A DNA stretch of 64,000 nt, taken from the IMG/VR virus record IMGVR_UViG_2684623127_000005. One strand, given 5' to 3'. Shown piece by piece: positions 8,671-57,247 of the stretch. The notes under the pieces were generated by a model, which was given only the letters and a program-made list of their open reading frames with translations, was not told the origin of the DNA and did no database searches. Each line of letters starts with the position of its first letter. The stretch's first letter is position 1. The translations under genes were made by a program, and so were the position numbers. The stretch is from a virus (Duplodnaviria; Heunggongvirae; Uroviricota; Caudoviricetes).

Positions 8671-8996
8671 AAACATTTCGCTGGAAAGTGAAGCCGGATA
8701 TGGAGGTGAACTCGCAGCCATCGGTGCGTGAAGTGCGTTTTGGTGACGGGTATTCGCAGCGTATGGCGGCGGGGCTGAATGCTGACCTGAAAACATACCG
8801 TGTGACGCTTTCCGTGACCCGGGAGGAGGCCCGACATCTGGAGGCATTCCTGGCAGAGCACGGAGGCTGGAAGGCATTTTTGTGGAAGCCACCCTATGCA
8901 TACCGGCAGATAAAGGTGACCTGTGCCGGGTGGTCTGCGCGGGTCGGGATGTTGCGCGTTGAGTTCAGCGCGGAGTTTAAGCAGGTGGTGAACTGA
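8667..8996 (+). CDS. M: minor tail protein M
   Basis: MKTFRWKVKPDMEV...RVEFSAEFKQVVN matches lambda gpM. Confidence 0.9.
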   Translation: MKTFRWKVKPDMEVNSQPSVREVRFGDGYSQRMAAGLNADLKTYRVTLSVTREEARHLEAFLAEHGGWKAFLWKPPYAYRQIKVTCAGWSARVGMLRVEFSAEFKQVVN

Positions 8997-9694: not shown

Positions 9695-9704
9695 ATCCTG
9701 TTTT

Positions 9705-24073: not shown

Positions 24074-24691
24074 ATTTTATTTAATAACTCCCGTTCGTGT
24101 TTTCTCTTGTTAATGGCATCTTCAGTAAATACAGGGTTACTGATAGTGACACCAATTTCAAAACAACCTTCAGACGTATTAACGTTTGGTAATAACGTTT
24201 CCATTATCGCGTCCTCAACAATGAATTTTGTGATGCAGTGCCTGGTGCCTCCAGGTGACGTTAACCAGTTAACAATTAACGCCGGATACAGAGAATCCAC
24301 CCATAACACTGTTTTTGGTTTTAACTGTTCCGCGTGCGCTCAGCCGCATTCACCGCATCACAAAATTCACTTTAAAAAGGGCGGCAGAGCAGTCACGGAG
24401 TAAAACTGATACCGCCAAACGTCACCAGAAAATTGATAACAGAGGGCGTTGCAGCGGGGTTGTCACTTAAGCGTATGGTCAGCCTGACAACCCGGTGTCC
24501 TCAAGGGGAAGGAATAACCCCGCCATACTTACCGCCGCGCCATTTCGCGGATTGCCACAACCAGAAGCGCACGGTCGAAGAAATTTAACGACAAGACTTA
24601 TATGCAAAGGGATCTCGCCGTGCGCTTTCGTGTTATGCCCTGACTTTTCAGGGTAAATTAACCTGTGGAAACCTGTTTTTACTGGCGCTAA

Positions 24692-31571: not shown

Positions 31572-31808
31572 CGGGAGAACATTACCAATAGGGATAAAAA
31601 CGATTTGTGGGAAAAGGGGAGTTAAGTAAAATTGCTGCGGGTGCTTGAGGCTATCTGTCTCAGGCATGAACACCAAAAGGCAGATAGAGAAAAGCCCCAG
31701 TTAACATTACGCGTCCGGCAAGACGCTTAACATTAATCTGAGGCCATATCTATGCTCTACACACGTAGGTTAGCCTCTTACGTGCCGAAAGGCAAGGAGA
31801 AGCAGGCT

Positions 31809-31964
31809 ATGAAGCAGCAAAAGGCGATGCTAATCGCCCTGATCGTCATCTGTTTAACCGTCATAGTGACGGCACTGGTAACGAGGAAAGACCTCTGCGA
31901 GGTACGAATCCGAACCGGCCAGACGGAGGTCGCTGTCTTCACAGCTTACGAACCTGAGGAGTAA
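31809..31964 (+). CDS. hok: Hok/Gef-family type I toxin
   Basis: MKQQKAMLIALIVICLTVIVTALVTRKDLCEVRIRTGQTEVAVFTAYEPEE is a canonical Hok; in-frame upstream extension from 31752 (mok-like leader); antisense sok presumably overlaps ~31700-31810 on minus strand. Confidence 0.85.
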   Translation: MKQQKAMLIALIVICLTVIVTALVTRKDLCEVRIRTGQTEVAVFTAYEPEE

Positions 31965-32790: not shown

Positions 32791-33840
32791 GTGCGGGTAT
32801 TACTTCGACCTGTTCTGGTACCGGAACTCGGTCTGGTTATCGTTAAGCCAGGCCGTGAATCAATGTCAGCATTCCATAACGGCAGAATACTGGTGGAGCC
32901 GGAACCAAAAAGCATGCGAGCTCTGCCGTCCGGGGTTGTACCTGCCGTTCACCAGCCGCTGGCGGAAGATAAATCACTACTGCCATTTTTCAGCGATGAG
33001 CGGGTGATCCGTGCTGCGGGTGGCGCTGGTGCACTGTCTGACTGGTTATTACGTCACGTGAAATCCTGCCAGTGGCTACACGGTGATTATCATCACAGCG
33101 AAACCGTCATTCACCGTTACGGTACCGGCGCGATGGTGTTGTGCTGGCACTGCGACAACCAGCTGCGGGAGCAGACATCTGATTCACTGGATCAACTTGC
33201 TCAACAGAATCTGGCCGCCTGGATGATTGACATCATCCGTCACGCAATGAATGGCGCACAGGAGCGTGAATTATCTCTGGCTGAATTATCCTGGTGGGCG
33301 GTCCGCAATCAGGTGGCGGACGCGCTACCGGAAGCGGTATTACGTCGTTCGCTGGGGTTGCGTGCGGAAAAAATCCGCTCCGTATACCGTGAAAGCGACA
33401 TCATACCGGGAGAACAGACCGCCACCAGCATACTGAAGCAGCGCACAAAAAATATTGCGCTACCGTCTCACACCCACCAGCAACAGAACCCACCACAGGA
33501 AAAGACGGTGGTCAGCATTGCCGTTGATCCGGAGTCTCCGGAATCCTTCATGAAACGACCTAAACGTCGCCGCTGGGTAAATGAGAAATACACACGCTGG
33601 GTAAAGACACAGCCGTGTGCGTGTTGTGGTAAGCCAGCCGACGATCCCCATCACCTGATTGGTCATGGTCAGGGCGGAATGGGGACAAAATCTCACGATA
33701 TTTTCACGCTACCGCTGTGTCGGGAGCATCACAACGAGCTTCATGCGGATCCGCTGGCGTTCGAAGAAAAGCATGGTTCTCAGGTTGATTTAATTTTTCG
33801 TTTTCTTGATCACGCCTTTGCAACTGGCGTGCTTGGGTAA
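32791..33840 (+). CDS. ydfU: YdfU-like DUF968 protein with C-terminal HNH-like Cys/His motif
   Basis: 349 aa (same length as Qin YdfU as I recall); GTG start with GGAGG SD; C-terminus CACCGKPADDPHHLIGHG...CREHHNELH. Confidence 0.65.
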   Translation: MRVLLRPVLVPELGLVIVKPGRESMSAFHNGRILVEPEPKSMRALPSGVVPAVHQPLAEDKSLLPFFSDERVIRAAGGAGALSDWLLRHVKSCQWLHGDYHHSETVIHRYGTGAMVLCWHCDNQLREQTSDSLDQLAQQNLAAWMIDIIRHAMNGAQERELSLAELSWWAVRNQVADALPEAVLRRSLGLRAEKIRSVYRESDIIPGEQTATSILKQRTKNIALPSHTHQQQNPPQEKTVVSIAVDPESPESFMKRPKRRRWVNEKYTRWVKTQPCACCGKPADDPHHLIGHGQGGMGTKSHDIFTLPLCREHHNELHADPLAFEEKHGSQVDLIFRFLDHAFATGVLG

Positions 33841-33852: not shown

Positions 33853-34227
33853 ATGCTCATAGATTTGGTTTTACCTTACCCGCCGACGGTGAACACTTAC
33901 TGGCGACGCCGTGGCAGCACATATTTTGTATCAAAAGCCGGGGAGCGTTATCGCCGGGCAGTGGCGCTTATTGTTCGCCAGCAGCGACTGAAATTAAGCC
34001 TGTCCGGACGGCTGGCAATAAAAATTATTGCAGAGCCACCGGATAAGCGCCGCCGTGACCTGGACAATATTCTGAAAGCACCGCTGGATGCGCTGACGCA
34101 CGCGGGGTTGTTAATGGACGATGAGCAGTTTGATGAAATCAATATTGTACGTGGAAAGCCAGTATCTGGTGGACGTCTGGGGGTGAAGATTTACCCCATA
34201 ATGCTTGAAGGGCAGGTCAAAAAATGA
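33853..34227 (+). CDS. rusA: Holliday junction resolvase RusA
   Basis: ..PYPPTVNTYWRRRG..., ..DKRRRDLDNILKAPLDALTHAGLLMDDEQ.. match RusA catalytic core. Confidence 0.85.
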   Translation: MLIDLVLPYPPTVNTYWRRRGSTYFVSKAGERYRRAVALIVRQQRLKLSLSGRLAIKIIAEPPDKRRRDLDNILKAPLDALTHAGLLMDDEQFDEINIVRGKPVSGGRLGVKIYPIMLEGQVKK

Positions 34228-35045
34228 AACTGGAAGATTTACCGAAATACTACTCCCCAAAATCCCCTGGCCTGACCGATGCATCGGCCTCAACGTCAAA
34301 AGATGCGCTGAGTATCACTGATGTGATGGCCGCGCAGGGCATGACACAGAATCGGGCTGAGATGGGGTTTTCTGCGTTCCTTGGGAAAATGGGCATTAGT
34401 ATGAATGACAGAGAGCGGGCAACAGAATTGCTGACAGAATATGCACTCAGTCGGTGTGATCGCGTGGCGGCGTTAAGAAAACTCCCGGCAGAAATAAAAC
34501 CGGCAGTGATGCGTATTATGGCTTCGTATGCGTTTGAAGATTATGCCCGTAGCGCGGCGAGCAAAAAACAGTGCTCCTGCTGTCACGGAAAAAAATTTAT
34601 TGAAAGCGAGGTTTTTACAAACAAGATCCAGTATCCGGATGGTAAGCCGCCGGTATGGGCAAAGTGTACGAAAGGTGTGTATCCGTCTTACTGGGAAGAA
34701 TGGAAAAAAGTCAGGGAGGTGGTAAAAGTTGCCTGTCCGGAGTGTGGCGGAAAGGGTGAGGTTTCCACCGCCTGTAAGGATTGCCGTGGGCGTGGTGTCG
34801 CCATTCATCGTGAAGAGTCGGTAAAACGTGGTATGCCTGTTATCAGAGACTGCCAGCGTTGTGGTGGTCGTGGCTGTGAAAGACTACCATCAACGGAGGC
34901 ATTTAATGCCATATGTAATGTAACCGATGCCATATCTCTTGATACATGGAAAAAAACAGTTAAACGTTTTTACGATACGCTGGTGGTGCAGTTTGATATT
35001 GAAGAAGCATGGGCAGAACAACAACTGAAAAAGGTGACCAGATAG
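34224..35045 (+). CDS. late-gene antiterminator Q-like protein (with DnaJ-type CxxCxGxG zinc finger)
   Basis: Position directly upstream of lambda-like pR'/tR'; CPECGGKGEVSTACKDCRGRG zinc finger; family assignment by context. Confidence 0.55.
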   Translation: MKLEDLPKYYSPKSPGLTDASASTSKDALSITDVMAAQGMTQNRAEMGFSAFLGKMGISMNDRERATELLTEYALSRCDRVAALRKLPAEIKPAVMRIMASYAFEDYARSAASKKQCSCCHGKKFIESEVFTNKIQYPDGKPPVWAKCTKGVYPSYWEEWKKVREVVKVACPECGGKGEVSTACKDCRGRGVAIHREESVKRGMPVIRDCQRCGGRGCERLPSTEAFNAICNVTDAISLDTWKKTVKRFYDTLVVQFDIEEAWAEQQLKKVTR

Positions 35046-35050
35046 CTTTG

Positions 35051-35078
35051 TTGATTTTTCCCGAATCTGTGGTAAATT
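35051..35078 (+). promoter_or_regulatory. candidate late promoter pR' (and qut region)
   Basis: TTGATT-16nt-TAAATT followed by TGCCCTAACGATGGG, strongly resembling lambda pR' -10 TAAATT and ...CAACGATGGG initial transcribed region. Confidence 0.5.
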
Positions 35079-35127
35079 TGCCCTAACGATGGGCGTTTTA
35101 TGCCTGACGTTAGAAGATTTTTTACAC

Positions 35128-35149
35128 CCCGCCGCCTGGCGGGTTTTTT
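35128..35149 (+). terminator. tR'-like rho-independent terminator
   Basis: CCCGCC-GCCT-GGCGGG hairpin + TTTTTT about 50 nt downstream of candidate pR'. Confidence 0.6.
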
Positions 35150-35271
35150 ATGACTGAAATCGCGTCAGTACAGTAAACGCGCTGGTGGCGGTGAATACCG
35201 GTCTTTCAGCTTGCTGGCTTTTTTGACAAGAGTTATTGGTGTGTCACGTTAACCGAAAAAGGGAAAAAGAC

Positions 35272-35469
35272 ATGCTGAAACAGCAGGATATGACAGAAAC
35301 TGCCAGAGCAGTGTTTAATGAATTAAGCGTCACCGAACCGGCGACAGTCGGGGAGATTGCGCAGAATACTTACCTTTCACGCGAACGCTGCCAGTTAATA
35401 CTGACCCAGCTTGTTATGGCGGGTCTGGCAGACTATCAGTTCGGTTGTTACAGACGCCTTCAGTCCTGA
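35272..35469 (+). CDS. hypothetical small protein
   Basis: ORF with ATG 35272 after tR'. Confidence 0.3.
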   Translation: MLKQQDMTETARAVFNELSVTEPATVGEIAQNTYLSRERCQLILTQLVMAGLADYQFGCYRRLQS

Positions 35470-35619
35470 AGGCTTTTTTATTTGTGGTAAATGGGCGACT
35501 GGTGGGTGTTAGGGGCACTCACCAGCCATCTGCTCATGCGTCCGGATCACAAGCAAACCTCAGGCCCACTGCTTTGCGCAAAAGCAGAATGAGCCTATCA
35601 GAGACAGGCTTAATGATCC

Positions 35620-36678
35620 ATGCTTAATACTGTAAAAATATCCAGCTGTGAGTTAGTCAACGCCGACTGCCTGGAATTTATCCGGTCGTTACCCGAAAAT
35701 TCTGTTGACCTGATAGTCACGGACCCGCCGTACTTTAAAGTGAAGCCCGAGGGCTGGGATAACCAGTGGAAGGGCGACGATGATTACCTGAAGTGGCTGG
35801 ACCAGTGTCTGGCGCAGTTCTGGCGGGTGCTGAAACCTGCCGGAAGTCTTTACCTGTTCTGTGGCCATCGCCTGGCATCTGATATCGAAATCATGATGCG
35901 TGAACGCTTCAGTGTGCTGAACCATATTATCTGGGCGAAGCCGTCCGGACGCTGGAACGGGTGCAACAAGGAAAGCCTGAGGGCGTATTTCCCCGCCACA
36001 GAGCGCATTCTGTTCGCGGAACATTATCAGGGGCCGTATCGTCCGAAAGATGCCGGGTATGAGGCGAAGGGCAGGGCACTGAAACAGCATGTGATGGCTC
36101 CGCTGATTTCTTACTTTCGTGATGCGCGTGCTGCCCTGGGGATAACGGCAAAACAGATAGTGGATGCCACAGGAAAGAAAAACATGGTGTCGCACTGGTT
36201 CAGTGCCAGTCAGTGGCAGCTACCGAACGAAAGCGATTATCTGAAATTACAGGCGCTGTTTGCCCGGGTGGCAGAAGAGAAGCATCAGCGGGGTGAACTG
36301 GAGAAGCCCCACCACCAGCTGCTGGAGACGTATACTTCACTGAACCGGCAGTATGCGGAACTACAGAGTGAATATAAGCATCTGCGGCGGTATTTTGGCG
36401 TGACGGCGCAGGTGCCGTACACGGATGTGTGGACGCATAAACCGGTGCAGTACTATCCCGGGAAACATCCGTGCGAAAAACCGGCAGAAATGCTGCAGCA
36501 GATAATCAGTGCGAGCAGTCGTCCGGGTGACCTGGTTGCAGATTTCTTCATGGGGTCGGGTTCGACAGTCAAAGCCGCGATGGCGCTGGGGCGTCGTGCA
36601 ACTGGCGTTGAGCTGGAGACTGAACGTTTTGAGCAGACGGTCAGGGAAGTACAGGATTTAGTCAGTCAGAACGGATGA
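35620..36678 (+). CDS. DNA methyltransferase (amino-MTase; N6-adenine or N4-cytosine; motif IV before motif I, beta-class order)
   Basis: DPPY motif IV near N-terminus (LIVTDPPYF), FMGSGST motif I near C-terminus. Confidence 0.85.
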   Translation: MLNTVKISSCELVNADCLEFIRSLPENSVDLIVTDPPYFKVKPEGWDNQWKGDDDYLKWLDQCLAQFWRVLKPAGSLYLFCGHRLASDIEIMMRERFSVLNHIIWAKPSGRWNGCNKESLRAYFPATERILFAEHYQGPYRPKDAGYEAKGRALKQHVMAPLISYFRDARAALGITAKQIVDATGKKNMVSHWFSASQWQLPNESDYLKLQALFARVAEEKHQRGELEKPHHQLLETYTSLNRQYAELQSEYKHLRRYFGVTAQVPYTDVWTHKPVQYYPGKHPCEKPAEMLQQIISASSRPGDLVADFFMGSGSTVKAAMALGRRATGVELETERFEQTVREVQDLVSQNG

Positions 36679-36926
36679 TATTGCAGAATTAACCGGGTAT
36701 CAGGTACGCCCCGAAAATTTTAAATGTCTCACAATTCAGACGGTTGACAGTTGTCTGGTTTGCGGGGAGTTTGTTAAAAGAAACTGGCATGGTGAATCCC
36801 CCTGAGCGGAGGGGCATATCAGCGCAGGTGTTTCTACTCTATCCTTTCTGTGCGGGTTCAGGTGCTGATACTGAACTCACCGGGAGGCACCCGGCACCAT
36901 GCATATGGTTAACAGACACGTAGCGA

Positions 36927-36952
36927 AGCCCCTCTCCGGAGGGGCTTTTTTT
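36927..36952 (+). terminator. strong rho-independent terminator upstream of nanS-p
   Basis: AGCCCCTCTCCGGAGGGGCT hairpin + TTTTTTT. Confidence 0.6.
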
Positions 36953-37181
36953 ATGGGCAAAAAAAGCCCGCGCTGGGAGACGCGGGCGGCAAGGAATAAA
37001 CAACAAAACGTGAAGTAATATTTCAGCTGGCGAATAATACCCCATGGTAATCACTCTGCGCAACTGCGCGGCCTTTTTCGAATTGCGGGCTGTAAGTCTC
37101 CCTTCTGCCATTGTCCTGTAACTTCCGGACTTCAGCCCGCTCTTTATCTGATTCAGTACACTATCCCGGCCGGGAGGATTC

Positions 37182-39128
37182 ATGACATTTAAACATTACG
37201 ATGTGGTCAGGGCGGCATCGCCGTCAGACCTTGCTGATGCACTTGCGCAAAAAATTCGTGAAGGATGGCAACCATACGGTGGGCCGTTTTCTTCGTATAC
37301 GGATGATGGCGCAGCACTTATTCAGGCGATTGTCGCAGAAGGTGATGTGAGCACACCTGTTGTGGTGAAGCCGACAGGTGGAGAAGGTGCAGTAATCAGT
37401 GCCACCAGCGACCCGGAGTATTACTTTGTTGTGGTTCTGGCAGGGCAGTCAAACGGCATGTCGTATGGTGAAGGTCTTCCGCTGCCGGAGACATATGACC
37501 GTCCGGACCCGCGTATTAAGCAGCTGGCGCGCCGCAGTACGGTGACACCGGGCGGTGCAGCATGCAAATATAACGACATCATTCCGGCGGACCATTGTCT
37601 GCATGATGTGCAGGACATGAGCCGCCTTAACCATCCGAAAGCGGACCTGTCAAAGGGGCAGTACGGAACCGTGGGGCAGGGGCTGCATATCGCCAAAAAA
37701 CTGCTGCCGTTTATACCGGCGAATGCGGGCATTCTGCTGGTTCCGTGCTGTCGTGGTGGTTCAGCGTTCACCACCGGAGCTGATGGCACATACAGTGACG
37801 CGAGTGGTGCTTCGGAGAATTCAACCCGCTGGGGTGTGGACAAGCCGCTGTATAAGGACCTTATCGGTCGAACAAAAGCAGCACTGAAGAAGAATCCGAA
37901 AAATGTGCTGTTTGCCGTGGTGTGGATGCAGGGGGAATTTGATTTTGGCGGTACGCCGGCAAATCACGCAGCACAGTTTGGTGCGCTGGTTGATAAATTC
38001 CGTGCAGACCTGGCGGATATGGCAGGTCAGTGCGTCGGTGGCTCTGCTGGCGGTGTTCCCTGGATATGTGGAGATACGACGTATTTCTGGAAGCAGAAGA
38101 ACGAATCCACGTACCAGACGGTGTACGGCAGCTATAAAAACAAAACGGAAAAGAATATCCATTTCGTACCGTTCATGACCGATGAGAACGGGGTGAATGT
38201 GCCGACGAACAAACCGGAAGAAGACCCGGACATTCCGGGTATCGGATATTACGGTTCGAAATGGCGTGACAGCTCAGCCACCTGGACGTCACAGGACAGG
38301 GCGAGCCATTTCAGCGCCTGGGCACGCCGTGGGATTATTTCCGACCGTCTGGCAACGGCGATTTTGCGCCATGCGGGAAGAGTGGCGCTAAACGCGGGGG
38401 CATCATCGACAGTATCAGAGGTGCGCCCTTCATCGCCTTCCGGTGCAGAAGCCACAGGCGTCACAACACTGCTCTCTTACCTTGCCAGCGAGTCAGAGGG
38501 AAGCCTGAAAGTACAGGGATGGTCAGCCAGTGGCGGCAGGGCAGAAGTGGTCAGCGATGCGGAGGGAACCGGAGGTAAGGCAGTGAAGCTGACCAAGGAG
38601 GCCGGTAAAAGCAGCTGGGTGCTGGAGTACGCCGCGGGCAACGGTGCGGCTCTGTTACAGAAAGGGGGGCAGATTCGCTGCCGCTTTAAGGTTTCGGGAG
38701 CGCTGGCTGCGAACCAGTATGTTATGGCGTTTTACTGGCCGGTCTCTTCACTGCCACAGGGCGTTGCCCTGACCGGAGACGGGGGGAATAACCTGCTGGC
38801 AGCGTTCTACATCCAGACAGATGCAAAAGACCTGAATGTGATGTACCACAATGCGAAAGTGGCGACAAACAACCTGAAACTGGGAACCTTTGGCGCATTT
38901 GATAACGAATGGCATACGCTGGCTTTCCGCTTTGCCGGGAATAACAGCCTTCAGGTGACGCCGGTTATTGATGGTCAGGATGGCACACCGTTCACGCTGA
39001 CGCAGTCACCGGTCAGTGCATTTGCGGCGGATAAACTGCATGTGACAGACATTACCAGGAATGCGACTTACCCGGTACTGATAGACAGCATTGCGGTGGA
39101 AGTGAACAGCACAGACACTGCGGCATGA
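37182..39128 (+). CDS. nanS: prophage sialate 9-O-acetylesterase NanS-p (SGNH/DUF303 esterase with C-terminal lectin-like domain)
   Basis: 648 aa; resembles the esterase encoded downstream of stx in Stx phages; ..VVLAGQSNG.. catalytic Ser block; GGAGG SD. Confidence 0.7.
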   Translation: MTFKHYDVVRAASPSDLADALAQKIREGWQPYGGPFSSYTDDGAALIQAIVAEGDVSTPVVVKPTGGEGAVISATSDPEYYFVVVLAGQSNGMSYGEGLPLPETYDRPDPRIKQLARRSTVTPGGAACKYNDIIPADHCLHDVQDMSRLNHPKADLSKGQYGTVGQGLHIAKKLLPFIPANAGILLVPCCRGGSAFTTGADGTYSDASGASENSTRWGVDKPLYKDLIGRTKAALKKNPKNVLFAVVWMQGEFDFGGTPANHAAQFGALVDKFRADLADMAGQCVGGSAGGVPWICGDTTYFWKQKNESTYQTVYGSYKNKTEKNIHFVPFMTDENGVNVPTNKPEEDPDIPGIGYYGSKWRDSSATWTSQDRASHFSAWARRGIISDRLATAILRHAGRVALNAGASSTVSEVRPSSPSGAEATGVTTLLSYLASESEGSLKVQGWSASGGRAEVVSDAEGTGGKAVKLTKEAGKSSWVLEYAAGNGAALLQKGGQIRCRFKVSGALAANQYVMAFYWPVSSLPQGVALTGDGGNNLLAAFYIQTDAKDLNVMYHNAKVATNNLKLGTFGAFDNEWHTLAFRFAGNNSLQVTPVIDGQDGTPFTLTQSPVSAFAADKLHVTDITRNATYPVLIDSIAVEVNSTDTAA

Positions 39129-39264
39129 TAAAAAAAACCGCCAGCGACAGGAATGGACGCTGGCGGTGGTGATACCTATGGAGAAAAAATAAAGGAACGA
39201 TACTTTCGTACTCTGGTTTTTTAATGAAAACAGTTCTTATTGTCAACAATAACGGAAAGAAATT

Positions 39265-39444
39265 ATGACATTTCTGAACCAGTTAATGCTGTACTTCTGT
39301 ACGGTGGTCTGTGTGCTGTATCTCCTTTCGGGTGGATACCGGGCCATGCGTGACGTCTGGCGCAGACAGATTGACAAAAGGGCCGCTGAGAAAATCAGCG
39401 CCAGTCAGTCAGCCGGAAGCAAACCCGAAGAGCCGCTCATTTAG
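39265..39444 (+). CDS. small hydrophobic protein (59 aa)
   Basis: Hand-translated MTFLNQLMLYFCTVVCVLYLLSGGYRAMRDVWRRQIDKRAAEKISASQSAGSKPEEPLI; GGAAAGA SD. Confidence 0.3.
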   Translation: MTFLNQLMLYFCTVVCVLYLLSGGYRAMRDVWRRQIDKRAAEKISASQSAGSKPEEPLI

Positions 39445-39484
39445 CGGCAACTTTCTTAATCACATCTTTCGACGAGAAAATCCC

Positions 39485-39730
39485 ATGTCAGAAATTACAT
39501 CCCTGGTCACTGCTGAAGCAGTGAAGGAAGTCCTGCGCTCTGAAGAAGTCCGGAGCGCACTGAAACAGAAACTTCGCCATAACCTGGAAGCGCGTCTTGA
39601 TGCAGAAGTGGATGCCATTCTGGATGAACTGCTGGGCGCACCGGCAGCTCCGGAGCCGGAAGGCATCGCGGGTGAGGGGAGTGCTTCAGATAGCGGTGAC
39701 CCCACACCGGACAGCGACATGATGATGTAA
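39485..39730 (+). CDS. hypothetical protein with acidic C-terminus
   Basis: ATG at 39485 within ORF-track entry 39311..39730. Confidence 0.35.
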
Positions 39731-39807
39731 GCATGCGTCAGGGACCATCGGTGTGTGCCGGTGGTCTTTTTTATTGTTGTGAGCTTCCGGATTGCGGGAG
39801 GCGGGGT

Positions 39808-40023
39808 ATGAACCAGATGGAAAAAATCACAACAGGTGTGTCATACACCACGTCAGCGGTGGGAACGGGCTACTGGTTCCTGCAGTTGCTGGACAGGGTT
39901 TCCCCGTCTCAGTGGGCGGCAATAGGCGTGCTGGGGAGTCTGCTGTTTGGGCTGCTGACATATCTGACGAACCTGTATTTCAAGATTAAAGAAGACCGGC
40001 GTAAGGCGGCACGGGGAGAGTAA
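39808..40023 (+). CDS. S: class II holin (phage 21 S-type pinholin) with dual start motif
   Basis: [71 protein letters not shown] matches S21; Met at 39808 and 39817. Confidence 0.8.
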
Positions 40024-40027
40024 GCTG

Positions 40028-40561
40028 ATGAGCAGGAAACTCCGCTATGGTTTATCGGCTGCCGTTCTGGCGCTGATTGCCGCAGGTGCTTCTGCGCCTG
40101 AAATCCTCGACCAGTTTCTGGATGAAAAGGAAGGTAACCACACCACGGCATACCGTGATGGTGCGGGTATCTGGACCATCTGCCGTGGAGCCACCCGGGT
40201 GGATGGTAAGCCTGTGATTCCTGGCATGAAGCTGTCGAAGGAAAAATGCGACCGGGTTAACGCTATCGAACGGGATAAGGCGCTGGCATGGGTGGAGCGT
40301 AATATAAAAGTTCCACTGACCGAGCCACAAAAAGCAGGTATCGCGTCATTCTGTCCGTACAACATTGGTCCCGGTAAGTGTTTCCCGTCGACGTTTTACA
40401 GACGAATTAATGCAGGTGATCGAAAAGGTGCCTGCGAAGCGATTCGCTGGTGGATTAAGGACGGCGGCAGAGACTGCCGTATTCGTTCAAACAACTGTTA
40501 CGGTCAGATATCCCGTCGTGACCAGGAGAGCGCGCTGGCGTGCTGGGGAATCGACAGATAA
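40028..40561 (+). CDS. R: SAR endolysin (lysozyme with N-terminal signal-anchor-release domain)
   Basis: Hydrophobic Gly/Ala-rich N-terminus (LSAAVLALIAAGASA) followed by lysozyme catalytic region EGNHTTAYRDGAGIWTICRGAT. Confidence 0.85.
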   Translation: MSRKLRYGLSAAVLALIAAGASAPEILDQFLDEKEGNHTTAYRDGAGIWTICRGATRVDGKPVIPGMKLSKEKCDRVNAIERDKALAWVERNIKVPLTEPQKAGIASFCPYNIGPGKCFPSTFYRRINAGDRKGACEAIRWWIKDGGRDCRIRSNNCYGQISRRDQESALACWGIDR

Positions 40562-45243: not shown

Positions 45244-46745
45244 TGGCAATTATTGATGATGTGATCGGCGTGTTTTCCCCCGGGTGGAAAGCAGCCAGAC
45301 TGCGTTCAAGGGCGTTAATCATGGCCTATGAGGCGGTGAAACCGACCCGGACACATAAAGCCCGGCGGGAAAATCGCTCTGCTGATCAGCTCAGTAAATA
45401 CGGTGCGGTTTCCCTGCGGGAGCAGGCCCGTTTTCTGGATATCAATCATGACCTGGTGATTGGTGTGTTTGACAAGCTGGAAGAGCGGGTGATTGGTGCC
45501 AGGGGAATTATTGTGGAGCCTCAGCCATTACGAAAAAACGGGGAAATGGCGGCTGAGCTGGCTGCGGATATCCGCCGTTTGTGGGCTGAATGGTCCGTGA
45601 GTCCGGATGTGACAGGGCAGTATACCCGTCCTGTGCTTGAACGTTTACTGCTGCGGACCTGGCTGCGGGATGGTGAAGTGTTTGCGCAGATGGTCAGTGG
45701 TGCGGGAAACGGTCTGGAACGGACGGCGGGAGTGCCATTCTGGCTTGAGGCGATGGAGCCGGATTTTGTTCCCATGCGCACTGATGAATCCGCCGGACTG
45801 AATCAGGGGGTTTTTCTTGATGAGTGGGGAAGACCGAAAAAATATCTGGTTTATAAAAATTATCCGGTCAGCGGCCGGCAGAGTGATACGAAAGAAATCG
45901 CTGCCGGAAAAATGATCCACCTGAAGTTCACTCGTCGTCTGCATCAGACGCGAGGCTCATCCATGTTATCGGGGGTGCTGATGCGGATCAGTGCCCTTAA
46001 GGAGTATGAGGATGCGGAACTGACAGCGGCGCGTATTGCTGCGGCGCTGGGACTGTATATCCGTAAAGGTGACGGACAGGACTATGAAGATCCGGGGAGC
46101 AAAGAGACCGAGCGGGAAGTCCATATCACCCCGGGTATTATTTATGACGATTTGCGCAAGGGCGAGGATATCGGCATGGTCAAATCTGACCGTCCCAATC
46201 CCAACCTTGAAACTTTCCGCAACGGCCAGTTGCGTGCAGTGGCAGCAGGCAGTCGTCTGAGTTTTTCCAGTGCGGCGCGTAACTATAACGGCACCTACAG
46301 CGCCCAGCGGCAGGAGCTGGTCGAGTCCACGGATGGTTACCTGATCCTGCAGGACTGTTTTATTGGCGCGGTAACCCGCCCGGTGTACCGGACATGGCTG
46401 AATATGGTGGTTGCGGCAGGTCTGCTGAAAATTCCGGCGGATGTGGAGATGAAAACGCTATATAACGCGACGTATTCCGGTCCGGTGATGCCGTGGATCG
46501 ACCCGGTTAAGGAAGCTGAAGCCTGGAGAATTCAGATCCGGGGTGGTGCAGCGACAGAATCTGACTGGGTGCGTGCTGGTGGGCGCAATCCGGATGAGGT
46601 CAAACGTCGCCGCAAGGCTGAAATTGATGAAAACAGCAGACTGGGGCTGGTCTTTGATACTGACCCCGTCAACGACAAAGGAGGCAACAGTGCCGGAACT
46701 GAACAACAGCGTCAGCAGGCCACCGACAGCCAGCATGAAGAATAA
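45243..46745 (+). CDS. portal protein
   Basis: 500 aa, position after W, before protease/capsid. Confidence 0.85.
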   Translation: MAIIDDVIGVFSPGWKAARLRSRALIMAYEAVKPTRTHKARRENRSADQLSKYGAVSLREQARFLDINHDLVIGVFDKLEERVIGARGIIVEPQPLRKNGEMAAELAADIRRLWAEWSVSPDVTGQYTRPVLERLLLRTWLRDGEVFAQMVSGAGNGLERTAGVPFWLEAMEPDFVPMRTDESAGLNQGVFLDEWGRPKKYLVYKNYPVSGRQSDTKEIAAGKMIHLKFTRRLHQTRGSSMLSGVLMRISALKEYEDAELTAARIAAALGLYIRKGDGQDYEDPGSKETEREVHITPGIIYDDLRKGEDIGMVKSDRPNPNLETFRNGQLRAVAAGSRLSFSSAARNYNGTYSAQRQELVESTDGYLILQDCFIGAVTRPVYRTWLNMVVAAGLLKIPADVEMKTLYNATYSGPVMPWIDPVKEAEAWRIQIRGGAATESDWVRAGGRNPDEVKRRRKAEIDENSRLGLVFDTDPVNDKGGNSAGTEQQRQQATDSQHEE

Positions 46746-48714
46746 ATCCTGGTTCAGGATGCTGGCGGGTAGTCAGGGTGAGGCAGATATTTATATTTAT
46801 GACGAGATTGGTTTCTGGGGAGTTACCGCGAAGCAGTTTGTCAGCGATATGAATGCCCTGGGTGATATCACCCACATTAATCTCCATATCAATTCACCGG
46901 GTGGCGATGTCTTTGAAGGCATCGCCATTTTTAATGCCCTGAAAAATCAGGGGGCGACCATTACCGTGTATGTGGATGGCGTTGCCGCCTCGATGGCATC
47001 TGTGATTGCGATGGCCGGTGATACGGTCATTATGCCGGAAAATGCCTTCATGATGATCCATAAGCCATGGGGATTCAGTGGCGGGGATGCTGAGGATATG
47101 CGCAGTTATGCCGATTTGCTGGATAAAGTCGAATCGGTACTGTTGCCAGCCTATGCGCAGAAAACCGGAAAAACCACCGATGAAATTGCCGCCATGCTGG
47201 CGGATGAAACCTGGATGTCCGGTGCCGAATGTCTGGCACACGGATTTGCTGACCAGGTGACACCCGCTGTTGAGGCAATGGCATGTATTCAGTCAAAACG
47301 TACAGAGGAATTTAAAAAGATGCCGGAATCCATCCGAAACATGATTACTCCGCCACGCAACAGTGCCCCGCGTGATACCACAGTGACAATCCCTGCACCG
47401 GCGGTAACAGAACCATCACCGGTACCGGCAGTGTCTGATGAGGCGACCATTCGCGCCCGCGTTATGGCAGAACAGAAAGCCCGCATGTCAGGCATTAACG
47501 ATCTGTTTGCCATGTTCGGTGGTCGCTATCAGACGCTTCAGGCACAGTGCGTGGCTGATCCTGACTGTTCGCTGGAAATGGCCCGTGAACGACTGCTGAA
47601 TGAAATGGGCAAGGAGTCCTCGCCGACCAACAAAAATACACCGGCCCATATTTATGCCGGAAACGGCAATTTTGTGGGGGACGGGATCCGCCAGGCGATG
47701 CTGGCCCGTGCCGGATTTGAAAATGTCGAGAAGGATAACGCCTATAACGGGATGACCCTGCGTGAATGGGCTCGCATGTCACTGACGGAGCGCGGTATTG
47801 GGGTGGCCAGTTATAACCCCATGCAGATGGTCGGGCTGGCGCTGACGCACAGCACCTCTGATTTTGGCAATATTCTGCTGGATGTGTCGAACAAGGGGCT
47901 GATCCAGGGCTGGGAGGAATCAGAAGAAACCTTCCAGAAGTGGACCCGTAAGGGACGCCTGTCAGACTTCAAAACAGCGTATCGCGTGGGGATGGGCGGT
48001 TTTGGTTCTCTGCGCCAGGTTCGTGAGGGGGCGGAGTATAAATACATCACCACCTCAGATCGCAAGGAGACCATTGCACTGGCCACTTACGGGGAGATTT
48101 TCTCCATCACCCGCCAGGCCATTATCAATGATGATCTGAATATGCTGGTGGACGTGCCGATGAAGATGGGGCGTGCGGCGAAGGCAACGATTGGTGACCT
48201 GGTCTACAAGGTGCTGACGGATAACCCGAAACTGTCCGACGGTAAGGCGCTGTTCCATGCCGATCACAAAAATATTGCCACCGGGGGGATCTCCGTTTCC
48301 GGACTGGATGCGGCCCGTCAGATGATGCGCCTGCAGAAAGAAGGCGATCGTGCCCTGAATATCCGTCCGGCCTTTATGCTGGTACCGGTGGCACTGGAGA
48401 CGGTGGCGAACCAGACCATCAAATCGGCCAGTGTGAAAGGGGCGGATGCAAACGCCGGTGTCATTAACCCTATCCAGAACTTTGCTGAGGTGATTGCAGA
48501 AGCGCGTCTTGATGCGGCAGACCCGAAAACCTGGTATCTGGCGGCGGCACAGGGCACTGACACCATTGAAGTGGCCTGGCTGGATGGTGTGGACACGCCA
48601 TACATTGATCAGCAGGAAGGTTTCACCACTGACGGCATTGCCACAAAAATCCGTATTGATGCCGGAGTGGCACCACTTGACTGGCGCGGGCTGGTGCGTT
48701 CGTCGGTGGCCTGA
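46690..48714 (+). CDS. prohead protease / scaffold / major capsid fusion protein (copy 2)
   Basis: Near-identical to 701..2725. Confidence 0.7.
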   Translation: MPELNNSVSRPPTASMKNKSWFRMLAGSQGEADIYIYDEIGFWGVTAKQFVSDMNALGDITHINLHINSPGGDVFEGIAIFNALKNQGATITVYVDGVAASMASVIAMAGDTVIMPENAFMMIHKPWGFSGGDAEDMRSYADLLDKVESVLLPAYAQKTGKTTDEIAAMLADETWMSGAECLAHGFADQVTPAVEAMACIQSKRTEEFKKMPESIRNMITPPRNSAPRDTTVTIPAPAVTEPSPVPAVSDEATIRARVMAEQKARMSGINDLFAMFGGRYQTLQAQCVADPDCSLEMARERLLNEMGKESSPTNKNTPAHIYAGNGNFVGDGIRQAMLARAGFENVEKDNAYNGMTLREWARMSLTERGIGVASYNPMQMVGLALTHSTSDFGNILLDVSNKGLIQGWEESEETFQKWTRKGRLSDFKTAYRVGMGGFGSLRQVREGAEYKYITTSDRKETIALATYGEIFSITRQAIINDDLNMLVDVPMKMGRAAKATIGDLVYKVLTDNPKLSDGKALFHADHKNIATGGISVSGLDAARQMMRLQKEGDRALNIRPAFMLVPVALETVANQTIKSASVKGADANAGVINPIQNFAEVIAEARLDAADPKTWYLAAAQGTDTIEVAWLDGVDTPYIDQQEGFTTDGIATKIRIDAGVAPLDWRGLVRSSVA

Positions 48715-48736
48715 TAACCGCGTTATCACAATCACT

Positions 48737-48755
48737 GCCCGAAAGGGCTTTTTTT
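48737..48755 (+). terminator. rho-independent terminator after capsid gene (copy 2)
   Basis: GCCCGAAAGGGC + T7. Confidence 0.6.
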
Positions 48756-48801
48756 ATGCCTGAAAAACAGCCCCACAGGGGCTGTCCGGAGAAACAGCAT
48801 T

Positions 48802-49128
48802 ATGGCGAAAAATTTTGTACAGGACGGTACCACCATTGAACTGGTGAATGCCGGAGATCAGACCATCCTGAGCGGTGCTGCGGTGGTGGTCGGCAGTATG
48901 GTGGCCGTGGCCATTACCGATATTCCTGCCGGTGAGGCCGGTGACGGTTTTGCCGAAGGCGTGTTCCTGCTGCCCAAACAGTCTGCTGACGACATTCAGT
49001 CCGGCGCGGTGGTTTATCTGAAGGACGGGGTTGTGCAGCTGGCTGCAGACGGTGCGGTGGCAGCGGGGGTAGCCTGGGAAAATGCCCCTGCAAACAGCGC
49101 CACTGTGGCGGTAAAAATCAATGTCTGA
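48802..49128 (+). CDS. small head-associated structural protein (copy 2)
   Basis: Identical to 2813..3139. Confidence 0.45.
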   Translation: MAKNFVQDGTTIELVNAGDQTILSGAAVVVGSMVAVAITDIPAGEAGDGFAEGVFLLPKQSADDIQSGAVVYLKDGVVQLAADGAVAAGVAWENAPANSATVAVKINV

Positions 49129-49402
49129 TCTGTTTACGCGAATGTGTTGCCGGATGGACGTGGCGACCGTTCGGGTGATGGGCAAACAGGCGGAGATTAA
49201 CGGCGTCGTGTACGACGTGATGCCGGAGGAAGAGTCCGCGGAGATGGGGGCGCTTTCGGGCAGCCAGTTGTCACTGGTGGTGTTTTCAGCCCGGTACCGT
49301 CCGGCCCGTCATGATGTTGTTGTGTTTGCGGGGCGCACACTGACGGTGACCCGTTATGACACGTACAACGGTAAACCCCGGATTTTTGTCGAACAGGAAT
49401 GA
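49121..49402 (+). CDS. head-tail joining protein, putative (copy 2)
   Basis: Identical to 3132..3413. Confidence 0.45.
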   Translation: MSDLFTRMCCRMDVATVRVMGKQAEINGVVYDVMPEEESAEMGALSGSQLSLVVFSARYRPARHDVVVFAGRTLTVTRYDTYNGKPRIFVEQE

Positions 49403-49404
49403 GT

Positions 49405-50028
49405 ATGGCAATAAAAGGTCTGGCGCAGGCCATGAAAAATCTGGATGCAATTGATCGCCGTGCCGTTCCCCGGGCCTCTGCCACGACACTGAACCGAGTG
49501 GCGGGGGCCATTATTGCGAAAACGGCCTCTTCAGTTGCCAGGGAGCTGGCCGTTCCCCGTCGTCTTATCCGTGCCCGCATCCGGTTAAGTCCGGCACGAC
49601 CGGATAAGGTTTACGCAAAGGTTTACATCAATACCGGCAACCTGCCCGCCATCAAACTGGGGGAGGCCCGCGTTCGACTTTCCCGCAGAAAACGGAGAAA
49701 GAAAGGACAGCGTGCGGCCCTGAAAGGGGGCGGCAGTGTGCTGATTGTGGGGAAAAGACGGATCCCGGACGCCTTTATCACCCGGCTGGCTAACGGACGC
49801 TGGCATGTGATGCAGCGTATGCCGTGGGCATCATCATCCACCGGCGCGGACAGCAAAGGGAGGCCGAAACGCCACCGTCTGCCGATCGAAGTGGTGAAGA
49901 TTACGACTGCCGGACCGCTGGCAGAAACCTTTGAACGTGAACGGGACCGGATGTACCGGGAAAAATTACCGGCGCAGATGATGAAAGCCATGACGCATCA
50001 GTTACGCCTGGTGCTGAAAAGAAAATGA
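49405..50028 (+). CDS. Z: tail completion protein Z (copy 2)
   Basis: Identical to copy 1. Confidence 0.85.
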   Translation: MAIKGLAQAMKNLDAIDRRAVPRASATTLNRVAGAIIAKTASSVARELAVPRRLIRARIRLSPARPDKVYAKVYINTGNLPAIKLGEARVRLSRRKRRKKGQRAALKGGGSVLIVGKRRIPDAFITRLANGRWHVMQRMPWASSSTGADSKGRPKRHRLPIEVVKITTAGPLAETFERERDRMYREKLPAQMMKAMTHQLRLVLKRK

Positions 50029-50040
50029 CTGGGAGGGTGT

Positions 50041-50439
50041 ATGAAACACCGTGAAATACGGGCGGCAGTTCTGTCTGCCCTGAAAGAAAATATTTCTGAG
50101 AGGGTGAGCTGGTTTGACGGTCGCCCGGTTTTTATTGATGAACAGGAACTGCCTGCTGTTGCTGTTTACCTGACAGATGCGTCTGCTGCTGACGAGTTCG
50201 TTGATGAGGGAACCTGGGAGGCGACACTGCATATTGAGGTTTTTCTCAGGGCAAAAGAACCGGACTCGGCACTGGATATGTGGATGGAAGAAAAAATTCT
50301 TCCTGCGCTGGAGGCAGTTCCCGGGCTCAGTGCATTACTGCTGAAGATGAATCTTCAGGGGTATGACTACCGCCGGGATGATGAGTTTATGATGTGGGGA
50401 TCGGCAGATCTCCTGTGGAAAATTACCTACGAGATGTGA
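50041..50439 (+). CDS. U: tail terminator protein U (copy 2)
   Basis: Identical to copy 1. Confidence 0.9.
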
Positions 50440-50446
50440 GGACGAT

Positions 50447-51199
50447 ATGGCAACACCAAATCCCCTTGAGCCGGTAAAAGGTGCCGGTACCACTCTGTGG
50501 GTTTACAACGGCAAGGGTGATGCTTATGCAAACCCGTTGTCAGACGATGACTGGCAGCGACTGGCTAAGGTGAAGGATCTGACGCCGGGCGAGATGACGG
50601 CAGAACCCTACGATGATAACTACCTGGATGATGAAGACGCGGACTGGACCGCGACCGGGCAGGGGCAGAAGTCTGCAGGAGATACCAGTTTTACGCTGGC
50701 CTGGAAACCGGGAGAAGAAGGTCAGAAAGGGCTTATAGGCTGGTTTGAAAGCGGGGATGTGCGGGCCTATAAAATCCGTTTCCCAAATGGCACGGTGGAT
50801 GTGTTCCGTGGCTGGGTCAGCAGTATCGGTAAGGCCGTGACGGCGAAAGAAGTGATCACCCGCACGGTGAAAGTCACTAACGTGGGCAAACCTTCCGTGG
50901 CGGAAGAACGCAGCGAAATTACGCCGGCCACTGCAATTAAGGTGACACCGACATCCGGTACGGTGGCAAAAGGGAAAACAACCACCCTGACGGTTTCTTT
51001 TGAGCCGGAAAGTGCAACCGACAAGACGTTCAGAGCGGTTTCCGCCGATCCGTCGAAAGCCACCATTAGTGTGAAAGATATGACAATTACGGTAAACGGC
51101 GTGGCGACAGGTAAGGTGCAGATCCCTGTGGTGAGCGGAAATGGTCAGTTCGCCGCAGTGGCTGAAGTCACCGTTACTGAAGCGGGCGCTGCAGGGTAA
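50447..51199 (+). CDS. V: major tail protein V (copy 2)
   Basis: Identical to copy 1. Confidence 0.9.
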
Positions 51200-51212
51200 A
51201 CGGAGGTAATAC

Positions 51213-51635
51213 ATGTTTCTGAAAACAGAACAATTTGAATATAACGGTGTGTCCGTCACGCTGTCGGAGCTGTCTGCGCTGCAGCGGTTTGATTATATGA
51301 AGTTTGTTTCAGACGCAGCACAACAGGAGACAACGAAGCATAATGCCGTGCACATTAACCAGCGATATCTGGAAACGGCATCCCTGCTTGTGGCGATGTC
51401 GCTATGGCATTCCCATTCCCTCAAAGGCACTCTGGCCTCTCCGGAGACAGAGATGCAGCAGATCCGCCGTGAAGTGATGCTGGGATGGCCTGCTGATGCA
51501 CTGAATCAGGCAACGAACCGGGTGCTTTATCTTTCAGGTATGCTGGATAACCGGCACGATGCCGATCCTGAACCAACCGGGAAAGCAGAAGCGACAGAGC
51601 CGGTAACATCAAAAAAGCATTCGAAGGTGAGCTGA
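51213..51635 (+). CDS. G: tail assembly chaperone G (copy 2)
   Basis: Near-identical to copy 1. Confidence 0.85.
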   Translation: MFLKTEQFEYNGVSVTLSELSALQRFDYMKFVSDAAQQETTKHNAVHINQRYLETASLLVAMSLWHSHSLKGTLASPETEMQQIRREVMLGWPADALNQATNRVLYLSGMLDNRHDADPEPTGKAEATEPVTSKKHSKVS

Positions 51636-51970
51636 ACTTTGTCCTGAAACTGGCGCGTGAGATGGGGAGAGCCGACTGGCGCGCCATGCTTGCCGGGATG
51701 ACATCCACCGAATATGCCGACTGGCGACGTTTTTACTGCACGCATTATTTTCAGGATACCCAGCTGGATATGCATTTTTCCGGGCTGACGTACGCCGTAC
51801 TCAGCCTGTTTTTTTGCGATCCGGATATGCATCCGGCGGATTTCAGCCTGTTCGCTCCGGAGGCAGAGGAAGGACAGGCGGAGACGCCGGACGAAAATGA
51901 TGTACTGATGCAGAAGGCGGCGGGCCTCGCCGGTGGAGTCCGTTTCGGGGAGGAGGGAAGGAGGTTGTGA
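51213..51970 (+). CDS. T: tail assembly chaperone G-T frameshift product (copy 2)
   Basis: Slippery A_AAA_AAG at 51611-51617; -1 frame open to 51970. Confidence 0.7.
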
Positions 51971-52013
51971 CAGTTATTGATGGTATCAGAGGACATTTCA
52001 GGAGGTGACCACG

Positions 52014-54659: not shown

Positions 54660-54985
54660 AAACCTTTCGCTGGAAAGTGAAGCCGGATATGGAGGTGAAC
54701 TCGCAGCCATCGGTGCGTGAAGTGCGTTTTGGTGACGGGTACTCACAGCGTATGGCGGCAGGGCTGAATGCTGACCTGAAAACATACCGGGTGACGCTTT
54801 CCGTGACCCGGGAGGAGGCCCGGCATCTGGAAGCGTTTCTGGCAGAGCACGGGGGCTGGAAGGCATTTTTGTGGAAGCCACCCTATGCATACCGGCAGAT
54901 AAAGGTGACCTGTGCCGGGTGGTCTGCGCGGGTCGGGATGTTGCGCGTTGAGTTCAGCGCGGAGTTTAAGCAGGTGGTGAACTGA
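54656..54985 (+). CDS. M: minor tail protein M (copy 2)
   Basis: Identical protein to copy 1. Confidence 0.9.
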   Translation: MKTFRWKVKPDMEVNSQPSVREVRFGDGYSQRMAAGLNADLKTYRVTLSVTREEARHLEAFLAEHGGWKAFLWKPPYAYRQIKVTCAGWSARVGMLRVEFSAEFKQVVN

Positions 54986-55683: not shown

Positions 55684-55688
55684 ATCCA

Positions 55689-57007: not shown

Positions 57008-57247
57008 AAATAAAAAAATCCCGCAGAGTTAGCGGAGCTGCGGGAGAGAACGATGAAGATTAACGTTATGGAGTTATTTTTCAGGCATCAAAAAAGTAAC
57101 GCAGCGTCATTATTGCGGCTACAGGCAATTGCCGGAAATGTGAAGAGTTTCAGAAATTTTATTCCGTCATGACACAGGCACCCTCCGGGGTGCCTGTTGT
57201 TTTCTGGCATAAACAGATTCAGACATCAGACAGGAGAGGGGGACAGA

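Follow-up and report, generated by a model that had tools for sequence, protein, structure and literature searches.

A predicted Q-dependent late-transcription switch and an accessory-gene slot with an M.EcoGII-type methylase cassette in a lambdoid prophage lacking stx

Introduction

We analyzed a 64,000-nucleotide stretch of viral DNA (Caudoviricetes; IMG/VR record IMGVR_UViG_2684623127_000005; hereafter the window), focusing on the region from its Q-like antitermination gene to its lysis genes. This region appears to combine a Q-dependent switch for late transcription with the slot for accessory genes ('morons') in a lambdoid prophage of enterohaemorrhagic-type Escherichia coli that lacks the Shiga toxin (Stx) genes, a reading to which we assign a probability of roughly 0.8. 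It carries a predicted late promoter, pR', with a pause element and an early terminator, tR', followed by a cassette encoding a small winged-helix protein and a DNA methyltransferase of the M.EcoGII type. The late-gene control region is of a kind already understood. Because every named component comes from a described family and the sequence itself is found in public genomes, the finding is an ordinary one. The exception is the leader RNA of the methylase gene, the only unexplained item in the region, which could be a new regulatory element.

The predicted late promoter, pause element, and terminator downstream of Q

The original prediction described a lambda-like pR'/tR' arrangement directly after a Q-like gene, consisting of TTGATT and TAAATT separated by 16 nucleotides (nt), the sequence TGCCCTAACGATGGG, and a CCCGCC/GGCGGG hairpin with a T-run. 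All of these elements were found, and the following features were assigned.

34224-35045, + strand: Q-like protein, 273 amino acids (aa)
35051-35078, + strand: pR'-type late promoter, from its sequence and its alignment to the pR' of lambda, P22, and phi80
35085-35090, + strand: sigma-dependent pause element AACGAT, the same as in lambda and P22, with GGG after it; this pattern occurs only once in the window
35085-35149, + strand: predicted terminated pR' RNA of ~65 nt (fold -21.9 kcal/mol, z = -2.5), with a 5' hairpin at 35085-35111
35128-35149, + strand: tR' intrinsic terminator from the terminator scan, with a 6-bp all-GC stem CCCGCC/GGCGGG (35128-35143) followed by T6

The -35 hexamer TTGATT (35051-35056) begins 5 nt beyond the Q stop codon (35043-35045). 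The -10 hexamer TAAATT (35073-35078) is preceded by TGg, and TGCCCTAACGATGGG follows at 35079-35093. A search of the 64 kb for the lambda-pR'-specific string TAAATTTGNNNNAACGATGGG gave a single match, with 0 mismatches, against about 0.02 expected by chance even with 2 mismatches allowed. A generic sigma-70 scan misses this promoter, because only 8 of the 12 consensus positions match.

The Q protein matched the Pfam family PF03589 (5.1e-50), with an additional weak match to DnaJ_CXXCXGXG, and lambda Q (PDB 7UBM; 1e-39) in two segments, residues 1-122 and 182-273. Judged from these matches, it is a true member of the Q-lambda family. In comparison with lambda Q, it contains a zinc-finger insertion of ~60 aa (residues ~123-181) with extra CxxC pairs, as do the phi80-like Qs. 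The extra segment sits where lambda Q has its zinc-ribbon 'arm', and is common to the Q proteins of phi80, Gifsy-2, ES18, and SfV. Identity to phi80 Q is 40% over the full length, and the closest relatives are the Qs of mEp237 and Klebsiella Kpn_R1 (56-62%).

The DNA following Q was aligned for eight phages of the Q-lambda family, namely the window, mEp237, Kpn_R1, Gifsy-2, phi80, an Stx2c phage, P22, and lambda. In all eight, the -35 and -10 hexamers are separated by a 16-17-nt spacer, and AACGATGGG (AACGCTGGG in phi80) follows the -10 hexamer after 5-7 nt. In all except lambda, a hairpin with a T-run was present 40-60 nt further downstream. The GenBank records of P22 and phi80 annotate the aligned elements as pR', qut or Q-binding site, and tR', and the RNA 5' end in the P22 record is the first A of the pause element. 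By homology, transcription is predicted to start (+1) at 35085, with a pause expected at +16/+17 (35100-35101). The late cassettes of lambda, P22 (gene 23), and phi80 (gene 17) share with the window the PF03589 Q, the -10 TAAATT, the 6-nt gap to +1, and the pause element AACGATGGG; in P22, phi80, and Gifsy-2, as here, the terminator lies 44-65 nt after +1. In contrast, tR' of lambda is at +194 rather than +44 to +65. The spacer of the window (TTTCCCGAATCTGTGG), 16 nt in length, also differs in sequence from that of lambda, implying that the Q-binding specificity should differ as well.

Within this spacer, the block TTTCCCGAATCTGTG is a candidate Q-binding element. It occupies the position of the Q-binding site annotated in phi80, and the same block is present only in mEp237 and Kpn_R1, which have the closest Qs, as expected of a Q-binding element co-evolving with Q. 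The promoter was nearly invariant among 39 close IMG/VR relatives, and most of the variation was located in the terminator, where pairing is kept; for example, the variant CCCGTC...GGCGGG of related phages retains its pairing through a G-U pair. A Q cassette has been described as the Q gene, pR', a Q-binding element, a sigma-dependent pause element, and a terminator (PMC9388147). Accordingly arranged in the window are a PF03589 Q, an adjoining predicted pR', a pause element at +1 to +6, and an intrinsic terminator before the late genes. The report on pR' diversity in PMC6266700 contains no mapped promoter for this Q type. Taken together, the Q family and the alignment with lambda, P22, phi80, Gifsy-2, mEp237, and the others support the lambda-like reading of the original prediction.

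A predicted short RNA from pR'

Transcription from pR' to tR' would yield the ~65-nt RNA listed above. RNAalifold on seven pR' leaders gave no structure, the terminators having been misaligned by MAFFT, and single-sequence folds were used. A 5'-terminal hairpin closed by AACG/CGUU forms from the first 24-28 nt in all eight Q-lambda-type leaders examined (dG -4.2 to -9.3 kcal/mol), and CGTT at about +21 to +27 is invariant across them.

The predicted biogenesis, constitutive pR' transcription halted at tR' in the lysogen, is that of lambda 6S RNA and StxS (PMC7547250). StxS is 258 nt long, is processed to 74 nt, and goes with a 144-aa Q clade, whereas the window RNA follows a 273-aa protein of the Q-lambda family. 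This Q and the ~65-nt distance from pR' to tR' rule out assignment to StxS. The RNA had no match in Rfam, and is predicted to be a counterpart of 6S RNA and StxS rather than an StxS member.

The slot behind tR' is a site of cassette exchange

The following features lie between tR' and the next small RNA (sRNA) gene.

35272-35469, + strand: 65-aa winged-helix protein, the first gene of the methylase cassette (phrog_331, 1.7e-37)
35456-35479, + strand: second intrinsic terminator (terminator scan), which overlaps the small gene's stop codon
35480-35619, + strand: conserved, probably structured 5' leader of the methylase messenger RNA (mRNA), ~140 nt (alignment of 41 loci, RNAalifold, and covariance model R1)
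35620-36678, + strand: 352-aa N6_N4 methyltransferase
about 36692-36724, + strand: empty tRNA-stx2AB junction (blastn against Stx2_EH1910; the same breakpoints occur in IMG/VR loci)

As had been noted originally, neither stx nor tRNA genes occupy this slot. The best tblastn match to StxA/StxB in the whole window had E = 0.7, with no match within 35-39.3 kb, and no tRNA gene was found anywhere in the window. Without stxA/stxB between Q and the lysis genes, the window is not of the Stx-converting type.

The accompanying statement that the methyltransferase lies where Stx phages carry stx was correct in one respect: the interval from tR' to nanS-p is the site of the tRNAs and stx2AB in 933W. However, the methylase is an independent cassette rather than a replacement for the toxin genes, since it co-occurs with stx2AB in the Stx2a phage Stx2_EH1910 (LC567834). 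933W (NC_000924) has the same order of Q, pR', terminators, nanS-p, and lysis genes, but carries three tRNAs and stx2AB before nanS-p and no methylase cassette in the slot; its short Q is likened in its record to those of H19B and DLP12. Stx2_EH1910 shares Q, pR'/tR', the small open reading frame (ORF), and the methylase with the window (96% identity up to window position 36691), as well as an STnc100-like element, nanS-p, the DUF1378 and DUF826 genes, holin, and endolysin. Its methylase is followed by three tRNAs, stx2AB, the STnc100-like element, iraM (minus strand), and nanS-p, and the tRNAs, stx2AB, and iraM are all missing from the window. In the blastn comparison, homology runs to 36691 and picks up again at 36725; between these points the phage has 1.65 kb of tRNA-stx2AB sequence.

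The methylase region was matched by all 30 best phage hits, which include Stx2a, Stx2c, and Stx2d converting phages, and the 17 annotated records among them have both a DNA methylase and stx2A (17/17). The slot after tR' was also compared across 80 IMG/VR contigs that have this Q allele: the methylase cassette, the tRNA cassette, and stx2AB are combined in many ways, with the methylase present in ~45 contigs and demonstrably absent from at least 20. Homology to the window breaks at 35151, 35266 (before the small ORF), and 36691 (after the methylase), and in several related phages it ends exactly after 35151, just past tR'. The breakpoints and the mixed slot contents indicate that the methylase and toxin cassettes are independent inserts in one hotspot. 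From these comparisons, the interval between tR' and STnc100/nanS-p is best described as a recombination hotspot, and the slot in the window holds the methylase cassette only.

The methylase belongs to a non-specific adenine methyltransferase family

The motifs DPPY and FMGSGST, by which the methyltransferase had been recognized, are located at residues 35-38 and 310-316, in the beta-class order DPPY (IV) ... FxGxG (I), and the protein matched Pfam PF01555 (N6_N4_Mtase; 5.6e-44). It is identical to M.EcoGII at 327 of 349 residues, with 22 substitutions or indels; the resulting ~94% is approximate, as the M.EcoGII sequence was machine-read from the supplement of PMC11551740 and some differences may be reading errors. 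It is also 99% identical to the enzyme of phage 1720a-02, which was named a close relative of M.EcoGII (PMC5778455). These similarities place it in the non-specific M.EcoGI/M.EcoGII family of beta-class N6-adenine methyltransferases, whose namesakes are likewise borne by prophages (of E. coli O104:H4; PMC5778455) and have the same motif order.

According to Murray et al. (PMC5778455), the prophage-encoded M.EcoGII (349 aa) methylates adenines regardless of sequence context, is silent in the lysogen, and harms cells that express it. By family, the window allele would also be expected to methylate adenine in any context. Since the family is non-specific, no target motif is expected, and the answer to the question of which motif is methylated is likely to be none. 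The earlier idea of a late role in self-protection or anti-restriction agrees with the published view of M.EcoGII (PMC5778455, PMC12707154). Among the top-ranked papers of the literature searched, we found no link of M.EcoGII to Q antitermination, to a winged-helix partner, or to a leader.

The methylase and the small gene were also compared with M.ECPA8_3172P-PNB-2, the two-subunit Stx-phage methyltransferase of Koudelka, and this identification was rejected because the genes, sizes, and location differ. That enzyme is a reported 16S rRNA methyltransferase, the gp5/gp6 pair of PA8 (bioRxiv 10.1101/2023.09.20.558713). In the PA8 record (KP682374), the pair is encoded near attL on the minus strand, with the methylase (208 aa) at 2228-2854 and its partner (143 aa) at 2851-3282.

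The small winged-helix gene

The 65-aa protein is the product of a genuine, conserved gene; it has 340 homologues across Enterobacterales, and is named 'TrmB family transcriptional regulator' by NCBI. It had no Pfam match above threshold, only sub-threshold matches to winged helices. Its AlphaFold model (predicted local distance difference test score, pLDDT, 90.6) has an H-S-H-H-wing topology, and a fold search with the model returned generic winged helices, which did not distinguish DNA from RNA binding.

In prophages of Pantoea, Klebsiella, and Salmonella, the small gene, ~150 nt, and the methylase are found directly after Q and before the lysis genes. The Q upstream of the cassette belongs to three families, Q-lambda (PF03589) in Pantoea, Q82 in Klebsiella, and Q21 in Salmonella, the other two being PF06323 and PF06530. 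The small gene is present at 27 of 41 species-representative loci that carry an M.EcoGII-like gene, and the others have different upstream neighbors or none. The 65-aa gene with its own terminator (35272-35479) and the methylase form a mobile two-gene cassette, from which the small gene is absent at about one third of the methylase loci. A hairpin of variable sequence is present directly upstream of the leader in 43/43 related loci, and 37 of these passed a lax terminator test.

The arrangement is reminiscent of com-mom in phage Mu. Both systems have a toxic, lysogen-silent DNA-modifying enzyme (PMC12707154) in a late position, and in both the enzyme gene is preceded by a gene for a small protein (~65 aa here) and by a leader, here able to hide the start region. 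In contrast, the small protein here is a winged helix while Com is a zinc finger, and the leader is kept at the methylase loci that lack the small gene. The likeness is functional only, and speculative.

The methylase leader is a candidate cis-regulatory RNA

The leader block was found in 38 of the 41 species loci, with or without the small gene, and is more conserved than the genes on either flank. Its median identity was 89%, in comparison with 74% for the methylase coding sequence, and was the higher of the two in 32/32 loci (Salmonella reference). There is no Shine-Dalgarno sequence before the methylase ATG, and no Rfam family matched the leader even at E <= 10. Covariance model R1 detected one copy in the window (136 bits, 35461-35622) and 51 further copies in viral contigs; 49 of these directly adjoin an intact start codon of the methylase, and 2 lie upstream of a methylase gene that is disrupted. 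A loose pattern scan of the viral contigs had given many chance matches, from which the model singled out these 51 true copies; its search of the same contigs revealed no weaker or more divergent ones.

RNAalifold predicted a long-range helix (35492-35496 with 35593-35597) enclosing two helices, P1 (35497-35506 with 35518-35527) and P2 (35531-35538 with 35548-35555). Across the alignment, 96.6% of the cells were paired, as compared with 23-43% when the partners were slid, and both sides had changed in 21 cells versus at most 4 in the slid controls. The pair 35531/35555 was CG in 20 loci, AU in 10, UA in 6, and UG in 4, and unpaired in 0. The pair counts lend the structure modest support, with two cautions: the covariation is thin, as most columns are invariant, and the structure was tested on the alignment from which it was derived. 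A local helix, GGCCCAC/GTGAGCC, was 45% paired, with the alignment columns off for most rows. Two alternative pairings fit equally well: ATGGGC with GCTCAT, and GGAUCA (35544-35549) with UGAUCC (35614-35619), which lies directly before the AUG. These would compete with the RNAalifold fold.

An upstream ORF in the leader, MGGWWVL, was considered and rejected as coding. It stops after 7 codons in many loci and extends to 32-33 codons in the window and Pantoea; the single-nucleotide indels and variable stop codons indicate that the leader encodes no conserved peptide. No sigma-70 promoter ahead of the methylase is kept in register across the species loci, and the + strand from tR' to the methylase yielded nothing promoter-like in the promoter scan. 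The 10-mer TGTGGTAAAT, which includes most of the pR' -10 hexamer, has one copy at 35068-35077 and a second, where the leader begins, at 35483-35492. ATGGGCG follows within about 20 nt of both copies, which may be chance or a trace of past recombination.

These observations make the leader a candidate cis-regulatory RNA. A bolder proposal is that it represents an undescribed structured RNA that gates translation of M.EcoGII-type methyltransferases, possibly as a two-fold switch with one fold hiding the start region; we regard this as tentative, and the odds as somewhat against it. If true, the leader RNA together with the preceding hairpin or terminator would account for the silence of a toxic enzyme in lysogens and for its release only at a late stage of infection. 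The winged-helix protein might modulate the leader, in the manner of Com and mom in Mu.

STnc100, nanS-p, and adjacent elements

The remainder of the slot contains an sRNA gene, a leftward terminator, and an esterase gene.

36758-36958, + strand: sRNA STnc100 (RF02076), 148.1 bits against a gathering threshold of 47, E = 1.5e-33, model positions 1-206 of 206
36959-36987, - strand: leftward terminator, back to back with the STnc100 terminator, with 8 pairs (7 GC) and then T7
37182-39128, + strand: NanS-p, 648 aa, with DUF1737, SASA, and DUF6645

The 'second strong terminator' noted after the methylase in the original prediction does exist at 36925-36955, where a ten-pair hairpin (36925-36948) is followed by a T-run. 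What had gone unrecognized is that it forms the 3' end of STnc100; the small gene with its terminator (35272-35479) and the methylase leader had likewise been overlooked. This sRNA has been reported 75 nt downstream of stx2B in Stx2 phages (PMC12370729), and has been related to PasD, beside a PF03589 Q and a sialic-acid esterase gene (bioRxiv 10.64898/2026.05.13.724894). The window copy agrees with the STnc100/PasD family in its full-length match, in its place downstream of a PF03589 Q, and in the adjoining sialic-acid esterase gene. In comparison with the copy downstream of stx2B in Stx2_EH1910, the STnc100 region of the window (36725-36950) is only ~75% identical.

The position of the leftward terminator corresponds to iraM on the minus strand of Stx2_EH1910. 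A weak OmrA-B-like match (26 bits, E = 0.22) covers 36959-37047 on the minus strand; apart from this, the CA-rich stretch at 36959-37080, examined for AgvB/AsxR anti-sRNAs, had no Rfam match at E <= 1.

The nanS-p gene was found between the STnc100 terminator and the lysis genes, as described originally. Its product matched PDB 6YP6 ('NanS-p', 3.7e-140) and 3PT5 (NanS, 2.7e-116), besides the three Pfam domains listed above. These matches identify it as NanS-p, a prophage esterase for 9-O-acetyl-sialic acid whose C-terminal domain is lectin-like. Right after its stop codon, a weak Esr41-like match (39130-39206, minus strand; 29.5 bits against a gathering threshold of 102) includes a terminator-like hairpin and T8.

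Flanking genes and public relatives

The region is bordered by the following genes.

32791-33840, + strand: DUF968 protein
33853-34227, + strand: RusA
39265-39444, + strand: DUF1378 protein
39485-39730, + strand: DUF826 protein
39808-40023, + strand: P21-type holin
40028-40561, + strand: lysozyme

The 5.1 kb at 34200-39300 are 100% identical to a prophage carried on the chromosome of E. coli O103:H2 strain 12009 and on those of several other E. coli strains that produce Shiga toxin (STEC), and 99.9-100% identical in strains typed O103, O121, O45, and O157. The RefSeq annotation of the 12009 prophage has the same ORFs and no RNA genes. All ORFs across the region are annotated as intact in STEC genomes with identical sequence, and those from Q through lysozyme are intact. 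Terminator-like sites are enriched in 34000-40200, with 17 found by the terminator scan versus 6.2 +/- 2.4 in shuffles.

Outside this region, the window contains a 17-kb direct repeat (1-17134 and 45990-63110; 96.7% identity). The window spans either a tandem prophage or two neighboring lambdoid prophages, and the morphogenesis regions are nearly identical. The early region encodes DicF RNA (24379-24430, minus strand; 76.7 bits) and a hok/sok-type sok RNA beside hokD (31639-31814, + strand; 117 bits), both typical of Qin-like prophages.

Alternative explanations

Several points weigh against the assignment of a Q-dependent switch followed by a methylase that protects phage DNA. The pR' hexamers are weak by consensus (8/12), and their spacer is 16 rather than 17 nt. 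The start site, the pause, termination, and Q-dependent read-through were all assigned by homology, and the Q-binding element by its position and co-variation with the Q phylogeny. The comparison with M.EcoGII is approximate for the reason given above. A nearby antirepressor gene is frameshifted, suggesting that the prophage may be partly defective. This frameshift would also suit a decaying cryptic prophage in which the promoter, methylase, and esterase are relics with no current regulated function, as would the two adjoining prophages of the window, with 17 kb in common at 96.7% identity, a mosaic load typical of STEC. We consider such decay highly improbable, given that the genes from Q to lysozyme are all intact, that the 5.1 kb are conserved at 99.9-100% in strains of four O types, that inducible Stx2 phages carry the same modules, and that the non-coding elements are conserved across genera.

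Two further alternatives concern the methylase itself. It might not be a Q-dependent late gene at all, but might have a separate promoter, such as one around the repeated pR' -10 sequence (TGTGGTAAAT) at 35483-35492, with the leader, acting on translation, as the main determinant of its output. The strong conservation of the leader is suggestive of post-transcriptional control, and the missing Shine-Dalgarno sequence and the potential of GGAUCA to pair with UGAUCC just ahead of the AUG point in the same direction. However, the -10-like hexamer is out of register across species (GGAAAT, GAAAAT, TAAATG) with no conserved -35, the scan yields no promoter-like site, the leader is always directly preceded by a hairpin, usually with a T-run, and the cassette is downstream of Q in every case with a detectable Q. 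An internal promoter thus appears quite unlikely. A role mainly in RNA modification or host reprogramming, rather than in protecting phage DNA from restriction, is also unlikely, if slightly less so. M.EcoGII methylates RNA and DNA:RNA hybrids in vitro (PMC5778455), a further point against the DNA-protection assignment, and the winged-helix fold of the partner also resembles RNA-binding winged helices such as SelB. Against this, the reported 16S rRNA methyltransferase M.ECPA8_3172P-PNB-2 is a different enzyme of 208 aa from the early-left region of PA8, and a gene located at the very start of the late operon is well placed for DNA modification before packaging. We therefore favor a Q-dependent switch followed by a DNA-modifying late gene.

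Proposed mechanism and implications

By homology with the characterized systems, RNA polymerase in the lysogen would initiate at pR' (+1, 35085), pause at AACGAT, and stop at tR', releasing the ~65-nt RNA. Upon induction, Q would be made, bind the element in the pR' spacer, and load onto the paused polymerase, which would then pass tR', the second terminator (35456-35479), and the STnc100 terminator. The first gene on the late transcript would be that of the winged-helix protein, followed by the methylase with its leader, then nanS-p, and finally the genes for lysis and morphogenesis. The two upstream terminators and the leader without a ribosome-binding site would keep the toxic methylase off in the lysogen, and its synthesis would be confined to the time just before phage DNA is packaged. 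Protection of the progeny DNA from restriction would be the likely benefit.

As the cassette is independent of stx and often ahead of it, the methylase should be co-expressed with Shiga toxin in many Stx2 phages. The enzyme used by New England Biolabs (NEB) and others as a non-specific N6-methyladenine (m6A) tool is, in nature, encoded in the first cassette behind the late terminator. The silence of the methylase in lysogens would follow from the location of its gene behind tR' and the 35456-35479 terminator with no promoter-like site between, and this position offers a concrete, testable reason for the silence reported for M.EcoGII.

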